The translations under genes were made by a program, and so were the position numbers. This document shows positions 13,005 through 19,810 of a stretch of 64,000 bases of DNA, in pieces. The notes under the pieces are model-generated. The model was given only the letters and a program-made list of their open reading frames with translations. It was not told the origin of the DNA and ran no database searches. The stretch is from sequence record PX930851.1. One strand, given 5' to 3'. This DNA is from a phage. Numbering within the stretch: position 1 is the stretch's first letter; each line of letters begins with the position of its first letter.

Positions 13005-13394
13005 TTAATCCAAAATATTATTAGGCATTGGTTGAACACTCACAAGTTCTTTAAAGAACTCAGTAGAGTCAGGCAATTTAACCATTTCCGGAGCATGCTT
13101 ACTGAATTTATGTTTACATTGACGGCATTTATATTCAAGCTCTGGTTTACGCCAGTTAATCAACTGAACTTGTTCAGTACCGCATTCAGGGCAATTAGGA
13201 ACGTTTTTAGAAGCTCTTTCACGTCGTTCAACCATAGCCATAATAGCATCCCATGCTGGAGGTTTAAAATCTAAATCGTCGCAGCCGTGAATCTTTCCAC
13301 GCATTTCCATATCATCTTCCTCACCAGCCATAATAATTTTAATTAAACTGGAATTACTTGAAGCTGCAATGTCTTCTAATAAACGCTTTTTCAT
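13005..13394 (-). CDS. zinc-ribbon protein, 129 aa
   Basis: CPECG...CRQC four-Cys motif. Confidence 0.55.
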
Positions 13395-14317
13395 TTCAAT
13401 ACCTCAATAGCATTACGTAAACCATGTGCTTTGGCGGTTAAAGCCTTAAGAACTTTAGTATGCTCTTCAATTTGTTTTTCAACTTCAATCAAACGAGCAT
13501 TGAGATATTCGTGTTCTTCTTTCATAGTATCATTTCCATGATTGGATTTTGGTGTAGGTTTAAATTCACTAGGGTCTTTTAATTTAATAACAAATTTAGT
13601 TTCAAACAGTGAAAGACCATAATTCGTATTATCATCAAAGGATTTGACTACATCCATATCAGATAATAACACGCGCAAATTATAAGCCAAAGAACTAATA
13701 GTTTCATTGTGTTTATTAGCTTCGCGTGGTTTCATATACGGAAGATTTTTATATATCTCATGCGGAGCGCAAACGATAATTGACAATTCAAATTGTCCAT
13801 TCTGGGACGATGGAATGAATTTAGCCGTAACCCAGTCTTTTACATTCACATTAATAGTACGGTTATCACCATGACAAAACAGTCTACGAGAATGCTTAAA
13901 AAGCATATTCACGTTATTATTGAATTCGTGTGAAAATTCACTAGCAAATTTTTCTTTACTATCTTTAGAAAACCATTCTTCTAAATAAGTTCTTTTCACG
14001 TCATTAATAATATTAAATGTAACAACACTAGCATTTGATACATTAGTCTTAATGTAGCTTGGATACATAAATTTTTTAACATTATTAACAGCTATCACAG
14101 AAGATAGTAATCGGGAACGTTTGAACCACTCGAGCAAAGAACCAAGAGAATGTGAATACGCATTTTGTGTATCTTTACAAATATGGTTTTCCCATCCAAT
14201 ATAGTCTAAAAAATCACGAAGAATATTATTGATTACTGCTCTGTGTCCAATCTGATAATTACGATGTTTAGTAATAAGACTGTCAAAATAATCAATATAA
14301 TGTTTACGAGTTTTCAT
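13391..14317 (-). CDS. hypothetical protein, 308 aa; paralog family member 1 with C-terminal coiled coil
   Basis: ATG 14317; C-terminal heptad-like [31 protein letters not shown]; shared mid-protein motif with three downstream neighbours. Confidence 0.6.
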   Translation of the reverse strand: MKTRKHYIDYFDSLITKHRNYQIGHRAVINNILRDFLDYIGWENHICKDTQNAYSHSLGSLLEWFKRSRLLSSVIAVNNVKKFMYPSYIKTNVSNASVVTFNIINDVKRTYLEEWFSKDSKEKFASEFSHEFNNNVNMLFKHSRRLFCHGDNRTINVNVKDWVTAKFIPSSQNGQFELSIIVCAPHEIYKNLPYMKPREANKHNETISSLAYNLRVLLSDMDVVKSFDDNTNYGLSLFETKFVIKLKDPSEFKPTPKSNHGNDTMKEEHEYLNARLIEVEKQIEEHTKVLKALTAKAHGLRNAIEVLK

Positions 14318-14369
14318 GTTCTTCTCACTTGGTTAATGATTTATACTCCGAGCCATCCTTGGCTTTAAA

Positions 14370-15371
14370 TTACTTAATTAACTGTAAAGCTTGTTCCAGA
14401 CGATCAAGACGATTAACAGATTCTTCCCAAATCCTTTTAGCCTGCTTATATTCTTTCTGCGCTTTATTAGAAATTTCTAGAACTTCTTTATAAGCTTTTT
14501 CTAGTGCAATAACTTCTGGACGAATTTCTACCGGTTCAGGTGAATCATCAAGATTATCCATTAGTTCCTCAAGGGTAGTTTCTTCTTTAGGAGTATTCAC
14601 AATTTCATCACATTTTTGTTGATAAATTTCTTTATCAGTAGGTGAGTACGCGCACTTTACTTCACGAAGACTAATTACAATTTTATATCCTTCCCAACCA
14701 CCCATATTTTTGAAAGGATATGTATGAATACTTTTTACAGTTTCCATACAATCCAAAGCCGTCTCTAATTGATGAGTTATAGTGCTAGCAATTGAGAAAA
14801 ATTTATTAATATTCTTTTGGTTAGCTTCTGGTGTAAAAAATTCATAATTCACAAAAATAGCTGCTTTATTTTTATCGAGTTCATATTCTTTTATGATAAT
14901 CATATCAGAAGCCAAAGGATGAATTTGACGATAATCGCCATAACATAATTTAGAAGCTGATTTTAGAATTTGCTTTTTGAAAAGTCTGAAATTACTAATC
15001 CAACGACGAGTAAAAATATTCTTAGGGTCTTCTTTGATATTAAGATGATAAGAATTAACATCACCGAACCAATTGTATCCTATTACACCTTTAGTTCGTT
15101 TAATTTCTTTCCCAAAATTACCAAGAATATCCCGATTAACCAAATATGAAAGAAGACGAGACCCTTTAAAGATTATCTTAATATCATCTTTATCTACACG
15201 GCTAGAAATTTCACGAACTTCATGAATAAATTTACTGGAAGAAACAATACTTGCATCAATACTGCTGAGCCATTGATTGATAATAGAAAGAACAGCGTTC
15301 TGACTAGACATGGGTTTAACTTTATCATCAATAACGCTATTGAATGATTTGATATATTCGTTACGAGTCAT
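14370..15371 (-). CDS. hypothetical protein, ~333 aa; paralog family member 2
   Basis: start moved to ATG 15371 (downstream of early promoter, with GAGGAG RBS); C-terminal coiled coil. Confidence 0.6.
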   Translation of the reverse strand: MTRNEYIKSFNSVIDDKVKPMSSQNAVLSIINQWLSSIDASIVSSSKFIHEVREISSRVDKDDIKIIFKGSRLLSYLVNRDILGNFGKEIKRTKGVIGYNWFGDVNSYHLNIKEDPKNIFTRRWISNFRLFKKQILKSASKLCYGDYRQIHPLASDMIIIKEYELDKNKAAIFVNYEFFTPEANQKNINKFFSIASTITHQLETALDCMETVKSIHTYPFKNMGGWEGYKIVISLREVKCAYSPTDKEIYQQKCDEIVNTPKEETTLEELMDNLDDSPEPVEIRPEVIALEKAYKEVLEISNKAQKEYKQAKRIWEESVNRLDRLEQALQLIK

Positions 15372-15399
15372 ATTAATCTCCTCAGTAGAAAGTAAGAAC

Positions 15400-15429
15400 A
15401 TTATACCACATCCTTGTGGTAAAGTAAAC
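15400..15429 (-). promoter_or_regulatory. phage early promoter
   Basis: -35 GTTTAC, 18-nt spacer, TGTGGTATAAT. Confidence 0.6.
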
Positions 15430-16448
15430 TAGTTTAGTGCGTTTAGTGCGTTGTTCAGTTTAGAACGTTGCTTCGTGAGATTTTTGACTTTTTCTTGTGC
15501 TTTTTCTAGCATCTTTTCAGCTTCTAACACTTCATTGGTCGCTTTAACGAGTTCATCATCTACTGCCTTAAGGGACTTCTCAATCGCATCCGCGTGCCAT
15601 TTTTCAACAGGTTTAAGACTCGGATTTTCAATAGGAAGAAAATTCACTTTATTGAATTTCCATGCATCCTTATTACCTGAGCTATACATCCAAAATTTAG
15701 GATCGTTTGATGAGCAATTAGATAAATTTAAGTTATCTTGCACTTCCTGCTTTTTCTCTTGCGTGACTTCGTCCTTTCTCAAAAAATCGTATTTAAATGA
15801 AACGATCATATCAAGTTCATACGTTGTTGTGTCTAATTTAAATCGTTCAAAACGAGGTAAAATCTTAGACTGAACAGCGGCAACAACATCCATATACTTA
15901 AATGCTTCTGTCAACTGTGATTTAAGGCATTCACAAATTGAAAGAGAATTTTTTGTATTAGGTTTAAAGCTAATTCGTGCAGTTCTATTATTTTCTTTTA
16001 ATGGTCTTACTTCCATCTGAAGAGTATAACCATCAAATTTCAGATTCTTTAAGTTAATATCAGAACCTTTTAATCGACTAGCAGTAGACAAAATTTGCTT
16101 TAATTGTTTACGGAATAGAGCAATAAATCTCCATTCAAGACGATAATGATTTGGATTAAAAAATCCTGTTGATAAATCGACCTTACTCTGACCAACGCCT
16201 TGAACAAATAGAGGATTTTTATAATCAATAGTTTTACAGAAATCGGTGAGCTGTTCGCGAGCAGTCATTTGCGTAATATATCCAGCTTTATCAAAATGTC
16301 GCAGCCATTCACTGCTATTCATATACTTAAAGTGAATATCACGATTAACTTTATCAGGGTCTAAATTATTTTGGCACAAAAATGTCATAACATTACGGGT
16401 ATAGCTGGCATTACGAACCATATCTTCAATTTGAGAACGAGTTTTCAT
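15429..16448 (-). CDS. hypothetical protein, 339 aa; paralog family member 3
   Basis: ATG 16448 with AAGGAA RBS; motif FRKQLKQILSTASRL resembles member 2 FKKQILKSASKL; C-terminal coiled coil. Confidence 0.6.
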   Translation of the reverse strand: MKTRSQIEDMVRNASYTRNVMTFLCQNNLDPDKVNRDIHFKYMNSSEWLRHFDKAGYITQMTAREQLTDFCKTIDYKNPLFVQGVGQSKVDLSTGFFNPNHYRLEWRFIALFRKQLKQILSTASRLKGSDINLKNLKFDGYTLQMEVRPLKENNRTARISFKPNTKNSLSICECLKSQLTEAFKYMDVVAAVQSKILPRFERFKLDTTTYELDMIVSFKYDFLRKDEVTQEKKQEVQDNLNLSNCSSNDPKFWMYSSGNKDAWKFNKVNFLPIENPSLKPVEKWHADAIEKSLKAVDDELVKATNEVLEAEKMLEKAQEKVKNLTKQRSKLNNALNALN

Positions 16449-16456
16449 AGTGTTCC

Positions 16457-17344
16457 TTAAGATTTAAGTAAATCAACAATTTTAATTAATTTTTCACGTT
16501 CAGATTTAGCTTTACTACTCAGTCCAGATAGTCTGAAAATTTCATCGTCATATTGTTGAATAGAAATATTCAGCTCTTCAATTTGCTTATTAAAATAATC
16601 AATTTGTTCAGAATGTTTTTCGTTACTACGAACTGGTACAGGTTTTGTAGGCAATTTAGTTAAACTGGATTCATCCGGGCGATAAATTAAAATACAATTT
16701 GAACCAATCGGGCATTTTGCACCAGACGAATATTCTAATGTTCCGGCTTCTTTTAAAACTTCAAAAGCTAAACAGAGATGATGCCCCATATTAACATAAT
16801 CTGTAGAGCGAGCTCTGACGTAATAATCATCGCCGCGAATACTAAATTTAAAGCATTTAAGGTCTTCTGTATTATTGGTCTTAAAAATCATTTGTTTATC
16901 TAGACCTTTAGCTAATCGAGCGCCTAATGCTAATAATCGTCGTTGATTTTCCCACAAATCCTCAATCATTTGATCGAATGATAATTTTGGCATTAGTCGA
17001 CCATAAAGGTCATATCCTTTATTATAATTACGAAGGATTTCACTCGCGTTAATACGAGACAATGCTCCAATTTTATTAAGAGCTTTCATAATGCGATTAG
17101 ATAAACCCATTCCAGACCCGTTTGTTCGCTGTAAATGTTTTTCTAATCCAAATCCAATATCAACTTTAAATTTATCTAAAATTTCAGCATGAACATCTTT
17201 GTCAATAACATTCAAATCCAAAGTTGGGTTAAATCTATGAAAAAATTTATCTGGCTCTCCACGACGAAGTACAGTCCATTCATTCAATTTTTTATTAACT
17301 AAAGATTTAATTACTGCATTGACATTATTAATTACTACTGACAT
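16457..17344 (-). CDS. hypothetical protein, ~295 aa; paralog family member 4
   Basis: start moved to ATG 17344 (GAGGAAAAT RBS); C-terminal coiled coil. Confidence 0.6.
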   Translation of the reverse strand: MSVVINNVNAVIKSLVNKKLNEWTVLRRGEPDKFFHRFNPTLDLNVIDKDVHAEILDKFKVDIGFGLEKHLQRTNGSGMGLSNRIMKALNKIGALSRINASEILRNYNKGYDLYGRLMPKLSFDQMIEDLWENQRRLLALGARLAKGLDKQMIFKTNNTEDLKCFKFSIRGDDYYVRARSTDYVNMGHHLCLAFEVLKEAGTLEYSSGAKCPIGSNCILIYRPDESSLTKLPTKPVPVRSNEKHSEQIDYFNKQIEELNISIQQYDDEIFRLSGLSSKAKSEREKLIKIVDLLKS

Positions 17345-17351
17345 ATTTTCC

Positions 17352-17759
17352 TCACTCAATTTCAATTTTACTAAATATACAGAATAAGATGGAACAGACT
17401 ATATAAGCACCACACACAGATTGAACTAATACCATTCCAAAGAACCAAACAATATTATCAAACAATGTCTGTTTTACGTCGAAAGGACGTAAACTTACAG
17501 TAATATTATCACCTTTTTCTATTGAAGAATACATCTCTGGTGAAATATATTCGCTAAATCTATAACCGTCATTTAGTTCATATACAGCAATAAACGATAA
17601 ACTAGACCCCTTTCCTTGAGTTCCTGTAAAGGTATTAACTACAGTAACATCATAATCTTTATAATGCATATAATCATTAATTGCGTAATAACCATATGCA
17701 ATTACTATACATAAACAACATATCAATAAATTCAATCTTTTAATTATCAACTGTTTCAT
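17352..17759 (-). CDS. membrane protein, 135 aa (N- and C-terminal TM helices)
   Basis: hydrophobic segments LNLLICCLCIVIAYGYYAI and IVWFFGMVLVQSVCGAYIVCSILFCIF. Confidence 0.55.
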   Translation of the reverse strand: MKQLIIKRLNLLICCLCIVIAYGYYAINDYMHYKDYDVTVVNTFTGTQGKGSSLSFIAVYELNDGYRFSEYISPEMYSSIEKGDNITVSLRPFDVKQTLFDNIVWFFGMVLVQSVCGAYIVCSILFCIFSKIEIE

Positions 17760-17814: not shown

Positions 17815-18342
17815 TTATGCGAGTACCGTCTTTAACCGTTCTTCAAACTTCCGAAGAGTATTTTGGCGTTCAGCTCTTTGCTTTTTGTAAGTTTCAATAC
17901 GCTCTGAAATGAGAGTGTATCGTTCATTTACTGATTCTTTCATAAAATCAGGAATTTCACGAGAAGCTTTAATCTCATCAAATTTATCAATAACAGCTTG
18001 CTCTTCAGCAATTAAGTTATCATACATCAAAATATCTTTCTTGATGAACTCAATATCTTCTTGAGTTACACGAGATAATTTAGATGCTTTATCCTTTTTG
18101 TACTGTTCGTTAGTATCACGAGACCAGTGTAATGTACGATTTTTATTCGTGTTCTTGTAAATTTCTACAATACCAATCTCATCGATAATAACGATCCAAT
18201 TCCAACGAGATTTATAAATTTGTCCTCCATCAACTGTGATTTCACCTCCGATTGAGATGTCATTAAAGAACTTGCTTTGTGCTTCAGATTTAAATTTACC
18301 ATCATTGTAGTTTACCAAGTTGAAAATATCTTTAGCATTCAT
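17815..18342 (-). CDS. hypothetical protein, 175 aa
   Basis: start moved to ATG 18342 (downstream of early promoter; GGAGGAAC RBS). Confidence 0.55.
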   Translation of the reverse strand: MNAKDIFNLVNYNDGKFKSEAQSKFFNDISIGGEITVDGGQIYKSRWNWIVIIDEIGIVEIYKNTNKNRTLHWSRDTNEQYKKDKASKLSRVTQEDIEFIKKDILMYDNLIAEEQAVIDKFDEIKASREIPDFMKESVNERYTLISERIETYKKQRAERQNTLRKFEERLKTVLA

Positions 18343-18369: not shown

Positions 18370-18399
18370 ATAGTACCACAGAGGAACAGTCTTGTAAAC
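18370..18399 (-). promoter_or_regulatory. phage early promoter
   Basis: -35 GTTTAC, 18-nt spacer, TGTGGTACTAT; conserved leader CAACTATCAACTAC. Confidence 0.6.
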
Positions 18400-18401
18400 C
18401 A

Positions 18402-18704
18402 CTAAAAGAAACTTCTTTCACAATTTTTTCCACTGAACCAAGCGCTCACTGCTTTCTTAGTCTCAGGAGCAGTGTTATCCATAAACCATTCAAAGGCAGC
18501 CTTTTTATGATTCTGGAGGGCTTCTCGGGCTTTAATCTGCTCACGGTCTATTAACACTAACATATGAGCCTTTCTTGTCACCAGGGGCTTCTTATGATTT
18601 TTTGAATGCTCCCAATCATTTGTCCATCGCATCGTTGTTGCGAACTGAAATACTGCTTCTTTAATTTTAGTTTCGTAAATTTCACGAGCCTTTGAGTATA
18701 ACAT
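18402..18704 (-). CDS. hypothetical protein, ~100 aa
   Basis: ATG 18704 preceded by GGAGG. Confidence 0.5.
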   Translation of the reverse strand: MLYSKAREIYETKIKEAVFQFATTMRWTNDWEHSKNHKKPLVTRKAHMLVLIDREQIKAREALQNHKKAAFEWFMDNTAPETKKAVSAWFSGKNCERSFF

Positions 18705-18805: not shown

Positions 18806-19774
18806 TTATTTCAGAAGAGTAACCTCAGCGATTTCTTCCCAACCGTTTTTGTCGGTCATAATAAAGTCAGCAAGATAAAGTGCAGTACGCAGTGAAACAT
18901 TGCGTAAACGGTTAACATTGACTTTCATCCATGATAATGCTTTATAAGTTTCTTCATCAGAAAGACCGCGTTTTTGCATCATGTCAGTTGAAAGAATAAC
19001 ATCTTCAACCCTGACCATAATTTCTTCATTAGTGTGAACACCCAAATCTAAATAAACTGAGCGGGAAACTAATGCTTGTAAATGTGGAGCAAGTTTAGTA
19101 CCACGGTCTAATTCGCGGTCAATGTCAACGTTTGTGATAAAAACAATCGTTCCTTTAAATTCAAACTCACGCTCAATGCCTTTTTCTTCTAAGTAAGAAG
19201 ATGCGGTGCTCCAGCAGACTTTACGGGTCTCTCCGGTGTCCAGAGCAGCTTTCAGAAGATTAAGAATGTCCATATCAGAGAAAACATCCACATCATCAAT
19301 CAAAAGGACAGAATTCTCTTCACGATTATTCCAAAGCTGTTCATAAAGACCGATACCAGAGATTTTACCATTAATGCTTTTATATTCGATGTATCCAATA
19401 TCATTTGCTTTATTTAAAGCTTTATCTAAAGAATACGTTTTACCAATACCTGCTGCTCCAGAGATAATTAATGAACGAATGTTTCCGTTAATAATACCAT
19501 TCGTCATCATTCCCATAACATTAAATCTTTTATTAATGCGGGTTTTCATATCTTCATACGATTCTTTAACTTCTTCAACTTTTACACCATCATATGAAAT
19601 GTCTGATTTGTAAACCCAAACACCGCGACGCTTACCGTCAATTTCAACAAAAACTTTACCATCTCCTTGTGCATCTACCGGAGCATTATCTGGGAACCAT
19701 TCACCTAAGAGCTCAAAAGTTCCAGAGATTTCTTTACCGAAGTAGATACCCTTATTGATAGTTACAGTTTTCAT
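18806..19774 (-). CDS. P-loop NTPase (AAA-like ATPase), 322 aa
   Basis: Walker A GAAGIGKT; Walker B VLLIDDVD; start at ATG 19774 (GGAG RBS) below early promoter. Confidence 0.65.
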   Translation of the reverse strand: MKTVTINKGIYFGKEISGTFELLGEWFPDNAPVDAQGDGKVFVEIDGKRRGVWVYKSDISYDGVKVEEVKESYEDMKTRINKRFNVMGMMTNGIINGNIRSLIISGAAGIGKTYSLDKALNKANDIGYIEYKSINGKISGIGLYEQLWNNREENSVLLIDDVDVFSDMDILNLLKAALDTGETRKVCWSTASSYLEEKGIEREFEFKGTIVFITNVDIDRELDRGTKLAPHLQALVSRSVYLDLGVHTNEEIMVRVEDVILSTDMMQKRGLSDEETYKALSWMKVNVNRLRNVSLRTALYLADFIMTDKNGWEEIAEVTLLK

Positions 19775-19810
19775 TTTATTCTCCAATTTTACATTTGTTT
19801 TGATAGGGTA

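Follow-up and report, generated by a model that had tools for sequence, protein, structure and literature searches.

The early nrdC.3 to nrdC.6 array of a T4-like phage: three homologous genes, a probable fourth, and a candidate role in counter-defence

Why does a T4-like phage carry, side by side, four genes of similar size and layout that are expressed early and are dispensable? The question is raised by positions 13391 to 17344 of the 64,000-nucleotide stretch of phage DNA analysed here (sequence record PX930851.1; hereafter the window), where four consecutive minus-strand genes correspond to nrdC.3, nrdC.4, nrdC.5 and nrdC.6 of bacteriophage T4. T4 is the reference lytic phage, and most of its early accessory genes are without known function. 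A first-pass annotation had read the four genes as diverged tandem paralogs with C-terminal coiled coils. We find that this reading is firm for three of the genes and probable for nrdC.6, and we propose, at a probability that we put near 60%, that the array consists of early, dispensable anti-defence paralogs whose products are non-enzymatic inhibitors of host immune sensors.

The source of the window is a Tequatrovirus (T4-like phage), the array region being 97% identical in DNA to the best-matching Tequatrovirus genomes. The 3,975 bases of the array had matches in 510 phage records, 462 of which cover at least 80% of the query, and where phage AR1 and the T4 record U76612 match, their genes carry the names nrdC.3, nrdC.4, nrdC.5 and nrdC.6. 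Along the coding strand the block follows nrdC.7 to nrdC.10 and precedes the thioredoxin gene nrdC. The open reading frames of 295-339 residues are present as first described, once two mechanically assigned starts (in the reading frames 14370-15401 and 16457-17365, of nrdC.4 and nrdC.6) are corrected. The start of nrdC.4 was moved to Met11 at 15371 because the ATG at 15401 lies inside a promoter −10 element, TATAATG, of which it forms the end; the ATG at 15401 was accordingly rejected, and Met11 is preceded by GAGG and is invariant in homologues. For nrdC.6 the start is the ATG at 17344, which gives the 295 residues that had been assumed. The proteins had also been called rich in lysine and asparagine, and the enrichment is real but only mild (lysine 9.6-11.2% versus 7.5% for the window; asparagine 6.4-9.4% versus 6.2%). 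Searches with blastn and tblastn revealed no further copies of the array in the window.

Pairwise BLASTP detected only the relationship of nrdC.3 to nrdC.4 (25% identity over 266 residues, E-value 1.5e-5), and the PHROGs database places these two genes in one family and nrdC.5 and nrdC.6 each in a separate one. For profile comparison with hhalign, family alignments were built from database homologues. Profiles from the first homologue sets gave probabilities of 0.5-10%, the nrdC.5 alignment being too shallow; this family is very narrow, with 13 representatives at E <0.001 among 1.84 billion proteins. When the nrdC.5 alignment had been deepened with three distant members (P0228, P0231 and the RB69 'nrdC.5'), a merged nrdC.3 and nrdC.4 profile matched it at a probability of 92.8% (E 4.1e-7), the 180 aligned columns lying in the globular part and outside the coiled coil. 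nrdC.3 and nrdC.4 matched one another at 98% (E 7.7e-14). Judged by these profile alignments, nrdC.3, nrdC.4 and nrdC.5 are certainly homologous.

We consider nrdC.6 a probable, distant fourth member. Its family matched the merged nrdC.3-5 profile with a score of 31-32 (P 0.0014) over 69-86 columns that include the motif described below, and none of the null comparisons reached 31, the maxima being 20.3 for column shuffling (n=160), 25.7 for block shuffling (n=100) and 17.9 for reversal. The alignment registers are transitive across all pairings, such that residue 64 of nrdC.4 corresponds to residue 48 of nrdC.5 and residue 85 of nrdC.6. A bridge is provided by gp94 of Yersinia phage fHe-Yen9-01, which scored 31.0 against the nrdC.6 profile and 37.3 against the merged nrdC.3-5 profile in the same region (null maximum 21.4). 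With bridging sequences included, the two sides matched at a probability of 86% and an E-value of 5.1e-6 (range 5e-6 to 8e-5) that depends on gp94 itself, making this an intermediate-sequence argument and not an independent test. The common origin and shared architecture of nrdC.3 to nrdC.6 appear to be new; the genes themselves are long-known T4 open reading frames.

All four proteins appear to follow one layout, in which a helical N-terminal part is succeeded by a motif helix, a ββαββ unit, a flexible proline-rich linker and a C-terminal heptad helix. The motif helix is conserved and amphipathic, with the pattern h-x3-L-x2-[SGA]-[AS]-[RK]-L-x2-G-D, and the four mid-protein strings that had been likened by eye occupy the same columns in independent profile-profile alignments. 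The C-terminal coiled coils had been put at ~30-35 residues; a proline-free heptad helix is found in all four proteins, and it is longer. Defined as a predicted helix in which a 3-4 hydrophobic repeat runs uninterrupted for four heptads or more, a coiled coil was predicted in each of the four, with custom heptad scores of 0.74-0.85 over 46-59 residues; in nrdC.6 the heptad-like, proline-free stretch covers residues 238-288 by this scoring. The five highest C-terminal heptad scores among 68 non-overlapping open reading frames of at least 100 residues in the window belong to the four array genes and nrdC.8. AlphaFold2 models, which cover nrdC.5 and nrdC.6, place C-terminal helices at residues 280-338 of the former and at 245-271 and 277-294 of the latter, with a predicted local distance difference test (pLDDT) score of 77-92. 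The two models (overall pLDDT 51 for nrdC.5, and 79.7 with a predicted template modelling score of 0.65 for nrdC.6) have the same order of motif helix, ββ, α, ββ, disordered linker and long C-terminal helix, and the offset between them is near-constant at 15-20 residues over six consecutive elements.

Helices of this C-terminal type also occur outside the array. The neighbouring gene nrdC.8 (window 17815-18342, minus strand; 175 residues) ends in a ~40-residue heptad helix with the second-highest C-terminal score of the 68 reading frames, and it heads the early unit that holds nrdC.6 and nrdC.5. Its GTG start at 18402, assigned mechanically, precedes the promoter, and the ATG at 18342 is the true start codon. 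We rejected nrdC.8 as a fifth member of the family, since it shares the C-terminal helix but has no detectable homology. A metagenomic protein of 173 residues (P0230) joins an unrelated N-terminal domain to a C-terminal helix with 98% identity to the nrdC.5 helix of the window and 100% to that of AR1, which suggests a coiled-coil segment that can be transferred as a unit. No match to the N-terminal part of P0230 was found in the window or in phage records.

Structural comparison pointed to probable relatives beyond Tequatrovirus. A Foldseek search of viral models with the nrdC.6 model returned uncharacterised proteins of 304-335 residues at a probability of 1.00 (E 3e-7 to 6e-4; 12-16% identity), among them gp94 and gp111 of fHe-Yen9-01 (Yersinia) and proteins of Pectobacterium phage PM2, Enterobacter phage IME523 and Acinetobacter phages Acj9, Acj61 and fHyAci03. 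Both gp94 and gp111 end in a heptad-rich C-terminal helix and have weak profile matches in the motif region; for gp111, which adjoins an nrdC.10 homologue, the weak match is to the motif region of nrdC.5. The corresponding search with the nrdC.5 model was uninformative (pLDDT 51), its top three matches being T4-like phage proteins. These proteins of other T4-like phages differ from the array in that they are not always in tandem or beside nrdC, and the scaffold is probably distributed across the Straboviridae.

The family searches also show what the proteins are not. nrdC.5 matches Pfam DUF7235 (PF23882) over its full length with 408 bits (E 3.4e-122; curated cut-off 30 bits), whereas nrdC.3 falls outside this family, with no more than 10 bits, which come from the C-terminal helix. 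nrdC.3 and nrdC.4 match phrog_1435 (E 6e-100 and 8e-165), and PF26897 is carried by all nrdC.4 homologues and by the nrdC.3-type half of a hybrid protein described below (P0119). nrdC.6 matches phrog_2257 (E 2.6e-152), with PF26899 present in 105 of 105 homologues. None of the four matched a family of enzymes or nucleotide-binding proteins in Pfam or NCBIfam, and no catalytic motif was found, as the first-pass annotation had noted. The Protein Data Bank held no sequence relative, and no known fold was recognised. Hundreds of GenBank and UniProt records label homologues of nrdC.3-6 'thioredoxin' or 'Mur ligase domain-containing protein'. We rejected a thioredoxin or glutaredoxin identity: because there is no thioredoxin match in Pfam or NCBIfam and no CxxC in any of the four, the 'thioredoxin' label is a mis-annotation that leaked from the gene symbol or from neighbouring nrdC.

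A function can be approached through Dsr1, a SIR2-domain NADase. Experimental work on T4 connects this host protein with the array. Srikant et al. (2022, eLife; PMC9391042) evolved T4 clones with deletions, one of which lost plating on ECOR17; deletion of host dsr1 restored plating of that clone, and expression of T4 nrdC.5 restored plating of the deletion phage on MG1655 carrying ECOR17 dsr1. According to a 2026 preprint, the TPR sensor of Dsr1, which Avs7 has as well, is triggered by a phage major capsid protein (PMC12803255). The window protein shares 93.5% of its residues with T4 NrdC.5 over the full length, and most of the 6.5% that differ fall in the linker, at residues 220-280. Its gene has neighbours matching those in T4, belongs to the same transcription unit and is placed alike with respect to the early promoters, upstream of early promoter 50.0, which drives nrdC.4. 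On identity and position, then, nrdC.5 of the window is the ortholog of the T4 anti-Dsr1 gene, with the phenotype known from the T4 allele. The first-pass annotation had suggested binders or inhibitors of variable host targets, an idea that has experimental backing for T4 nrdC.5; for nrdC.3, nrdC.4 and nrdC.6 an anti-defence role is a reasonable inference, based on their homology, on their expression early in infection and on the fact that they are dispensable and vary in copy number.

Known counter-defence systems offer partial parallels. The T-even genes dmd-tifA-adfA (the 'anti-TA island') and those for IPI and IPIII are likewise non-essential, each neutralises one host defence, and they are clustered and easily lost or swapped; they differ in being small and in not being described as mutually homologous (PMC9391042), whereas the array would represent four copies of one scaffold of ~300 residues. 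As a working analogy we propose DSAD1 of an SPbeta-type phage, which inhibits DSR2, a sirtuin NADase related to Dsr1; it stops activation of a SIR2-domain defence NADase by a phage structural protein. Similarity of the four proteins to the solved DSAD1 was not found in sequence or fold.

The array behaves like a set of host-range accessory genes: it is dispensable, its copy number varies, nrdC.3 exists as divergent alleles, and nrdC.3 to nrdC.5 evolve faster than their neighbours. Phage LYE-01 is without nrdC.4, there are three members in RB69, and Ec_YwIITB1 has a split nrdC.5. In ACG-C40 a deletion (locus L005, 6802-7213) leaves nrdC.6, an N-terminal stub of nrdC.5 and a C-terminal remnant of nrdC.3. 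Alleles of nrdC.3 are 90-100% identical at their ends and only 25-60% identical in the centre (residues 80-260), and a scan of viral contigs with nrdC.3 recovered two close loci only. The ratio of nonsynonymous to synonymous substitution rates (dN/dS) is 0.14-0.28 for nrdC.3 to nrdC.5, 0.08 for nrdC.6 and 0.03-0.06 for nrdC.8 to nrdC.10.

Several individual variants were seen in the course of these comparisons. A metagenomic sequence, P0119, is an in-frame deletion hybrid in which nrdC.5 (through ...KFNKVN) is joined to the motif helix of nrdC.3 (MLFKH...), with loss of nrdC.4. In Shigella phage Sf25 the nrdC.6 homologue (P0121, 378 residues) has an internal tandem duplication of ~83 residues, which takes in the β-unit and the linker and reaches into the beginning of the C-terminal helix. 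The RB69 block, which is down to three large genes, has undergone rearrangement too: its nrdC.7, a membrane-protein gene, lies between nrdC.2 and nrdC (locus L004, 8247-8660) and not beside nrdC.6. In the T4 record U76612, nrdC.6 has 275 residues owing to a frameshift that deletes the C-terminal helix (locus L008, 7350-7530), other T4 isolates having the full 296 residues; the frameshift reflects faulty sequencing or else a difference between strains.

Two early promoters serve the locus, both nearly base-for-base conserved in T4 and annotated in U76612. One lies inside the array, as had been reported, with its GTTTAC −35 element overlapping the nrdC.5 stop codon; the other lies beyond the high-coordinate, upstream end of the array and not, as had been stated, the low-coordinate end. 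Two transcription units result, nrdC.8-nrdC.7-nrdC.6-nrdC.5 from the promoter at 18398-18370 and nrdC.4-nrdC.3 with downstream genes from that at 15428-15400, so that the proposed separate expression of members holds by halves: nrdC.6 and nrdC.5 share one promoter, and nrdC.4 and nrdC.3 the next. A terminator-like hairpin at 15421-15404, inside the promoter, was dismissed, the number of such sites being that expected by chance. Between nrdC.4 and nrdC.3 (14338-14345, minus strand), TATAAATC matches seven of the eight positions of the T4 late-promoter consensus TATAAATA; the site is conserved in T4 and reads CATAAATC in RB9, and nrdC.3 could receive extra late expression from it.

Table 1. Genes, early promoters and protein elements of the nrdC.3-nrdC.6 region (window coordinates).
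Feature	Coordinates	Strand	Description
nrdC.3	13391..14317	-	308 aa; paralog 1; phrog_1435; 91.6% identity to T4 NrdC.3
nrdC.4	14370..15371	-	333 aa from Met11; paralog 2; phrog_1435, PF26897; 89.5% identity to T4 NrdC.4
nrdC.5	15429..16448	-	339 aa; paralog 3; Pfam DUF7235/PF23882, phrog_2351; 93.5% identity to T4 NrdC.5
nrdC.6	16457..17344	-	295 aa; probable distant paralog 4; phrog_2257, PF26899; 96.5% identity to T4 protein
Early promoter	15400..15428 (reads 15428-15400)	-	T4 'early promoter 50.0'; GTTTAC −35 and TGGTATAAT extended −10
Early promoter	18370..18398 (reads 18398-18370)	-	upstream of nrdC.8; TTTACA-17-TACTAT with TG
Motif helix of nrdC.3	13859..13924	-	aa 132-153, FNNNVNMLFKHSRRLFCHGDNR
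Motif helix of nrdC.4	14928..14990	-	aa 128-148, FRLFKKQILKSASKLCYGDYR
Motif helix of nrdC.5	16059..16115	-	aa 112-130, FRKQLKQILSTASRLKGSD
Motif helix of nrdC.6	16895..16957	-	aa 130-150, LWENQRRLLALGARLAKGLDK; invariant across nrdC.6 family
C-terminal heptad helix of nrdC.3	13394..13531	-	aa 263-308; Pro-rich linker before
C-terminal heptad helix of nrdC.4	14373..14516	-	aa 286-333
C-terminal heptad helix of nrdC.5	15432..15608	-	aa 281-339; seven unbroken 3-4 heptads
C-terminal helices of nrdC.6	16463..16612	-	aa 245-271 and 277-294 (AlphaFold2)

Two other genes of the region lie outside the array. Downstream of it, nrdC.2 (13005-13394, minus strand) encodes a zinc-ribbon protein (CPEC...CRQC) of 129 residues, compared with 104 in T4; it is only 78% identical to the T4 protein, and its differing C-terminal tail overlaps the nrdC.3 stop codon. 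Upstream, nrdC.10 (18806-19786, minus strand; 326 residues) has a P-loop (GAAGIGKT) and, at 99% identity to the T4 protein, is far more conserved than the adjoining paralog array.

How might such an array work? In the explanation that we favour, the four genes would go back to a single ancestor that was duplicated in tandem long ago, and their proteins, made in the first minutes of infection, would inhibit immune sensors of the host stoichiometrically. For NrdC.5 the target would be the sirtuin NADase Dsr1, which it would bind and keep from responding to the phage trigger, so that nicotinamide adenine dinucleotide (NAD+) would be spared. Oligomers would form through the C-terminal helix, target specificity would reside in the poorly conserved centre, and nrdC.3, nrdC.4 and nrdC.6 would have diverged toward other defence proteins or sensor variants. 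Direct binding, oligomerisation and the location of specificity are thus predicted features of the model; by analogy with DSAD1 and DSR2, direct binding that prevents activation may be taken as the simplest mechanism.

Several points weigh against this explanation. A published phenotype exists for only one of the four genes, nrdC.5, and the literature searched beyond Srikant et al. 2022 contained no NrdC.5 binding data, mechanism or new name, and nothing on the Pfam DUF names. No gene-wide positive selection was detected, the dN/dS values of 0.08-0.28 for the four genes indicating purifying selection. The direct link of nrdC.6 to the other members is weak (hhalign probability 18%) and partly rests on one bridging sequence, and the Foldseek search with the nrdC.6 model included no recognised representative of nrdC.3, nrdC.4 or nrdC.5. 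The nrdC.5 model is poor, which renders its element order merely indicative, and coiled-coil formation and oligomeric state are predicted from heptad patterns alone.

Some of these points lead to other explanations. It is possible, though we consider it unlikely, that the genes are paralogs of which only nrdC.5 serves counter-defence, the others having turned to other early host-takeover tasks (directed at host transcription, nucleoid or metabolic proteins) or become redundant. The literature searched reports no phenotype for nrdC.3, nrdC.4 or nrdC.6, the identity between paralogs of <25% is compatible with a change of function, and nrdC.6, at a dN/dS of 0.08, is much more conserved than the other members, unlike a typical arms-race gene. 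These genes nevertheless have their layout and early co-expression in common with the anti-defence member, and their frequent natural loss or pseudogenisation and the cassette-like allelic variation of nrdC.3 fit host-range accessory genes. We think it improbable that nrdC.6 is not a true paralog but an unrelated gene with a common architecture and a chance motif match, like nrdC.8. That gene shows that a C-terminal heptad helix without homology proves nothing by itself, PHROGs and Pfam keep the nrdC.6 family apart, and the direct hhalign probabilities are low (1-18%). Against a chance match stand the score of nrdC.6, which exceeds all column-shuffle, block-shuffle and reversed nulls (25.7 or less); the position of the match in the globular part and not in the coiled coil, in a register that agrees via three independent pairings; the matches of gp94 to both sides over the same region; and the alignment of six secondary-structure elements at a near-constant offset.

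The remaining alternative concerns mechanism, and we give it the least credence of these three. NrdC.5 might defeat Dsr1 indirectly or enzymatically, with NAD+ replenished or protected, the trigger modified, or dsr1 expression blocked. The rescue by NrdC.5 is genetic only (PMC9391042), and other phages overcome NAD+-depleting systems, DSR1 included, by rebuilding NAD+ through NARP pathways. NrdC.5, in contrast, has no match to an enzyme family or nucleotide-binding fold, the family holds no invariant polar constellation of catalytic type outside the structural motifs, and its narrowness (the 13 representatives mentioned above) is typical of a specific binder and not of a metabolic enzyme.

The anti-defence explanation can also be carried further, to a bolder form that we regard as speculative and rather unlikely. 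Here, nrdC.3-6 and their distant look-alikes would constitute one modular anti-immune scaffold whose conserved frame and oligomerising C-terminal helix together display a central surface that changes rapidly, and each paralog would block a different capsid-sensing TPR sensor (Dsr1, Avs7, or relatives with other effectors), possibly as mixed oligomers. If so, a single family of genes would shield T-even phages broadly from one class of pattern-recognition receptors.

Membership in a paralog family with nrdC.5 turns three mislabelled 'hypothetical proteins' into candidate counter-defence genes, with specificity likely to lie in the variable central segment and with the C-terminal helix as a putative handle for oligomerisation. 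The array thereby offers a small, testable set of genes for mapping the E. coli defences that limit the host range of T-even phages, which is relevant to the T4-like phages of therapy cocktails.

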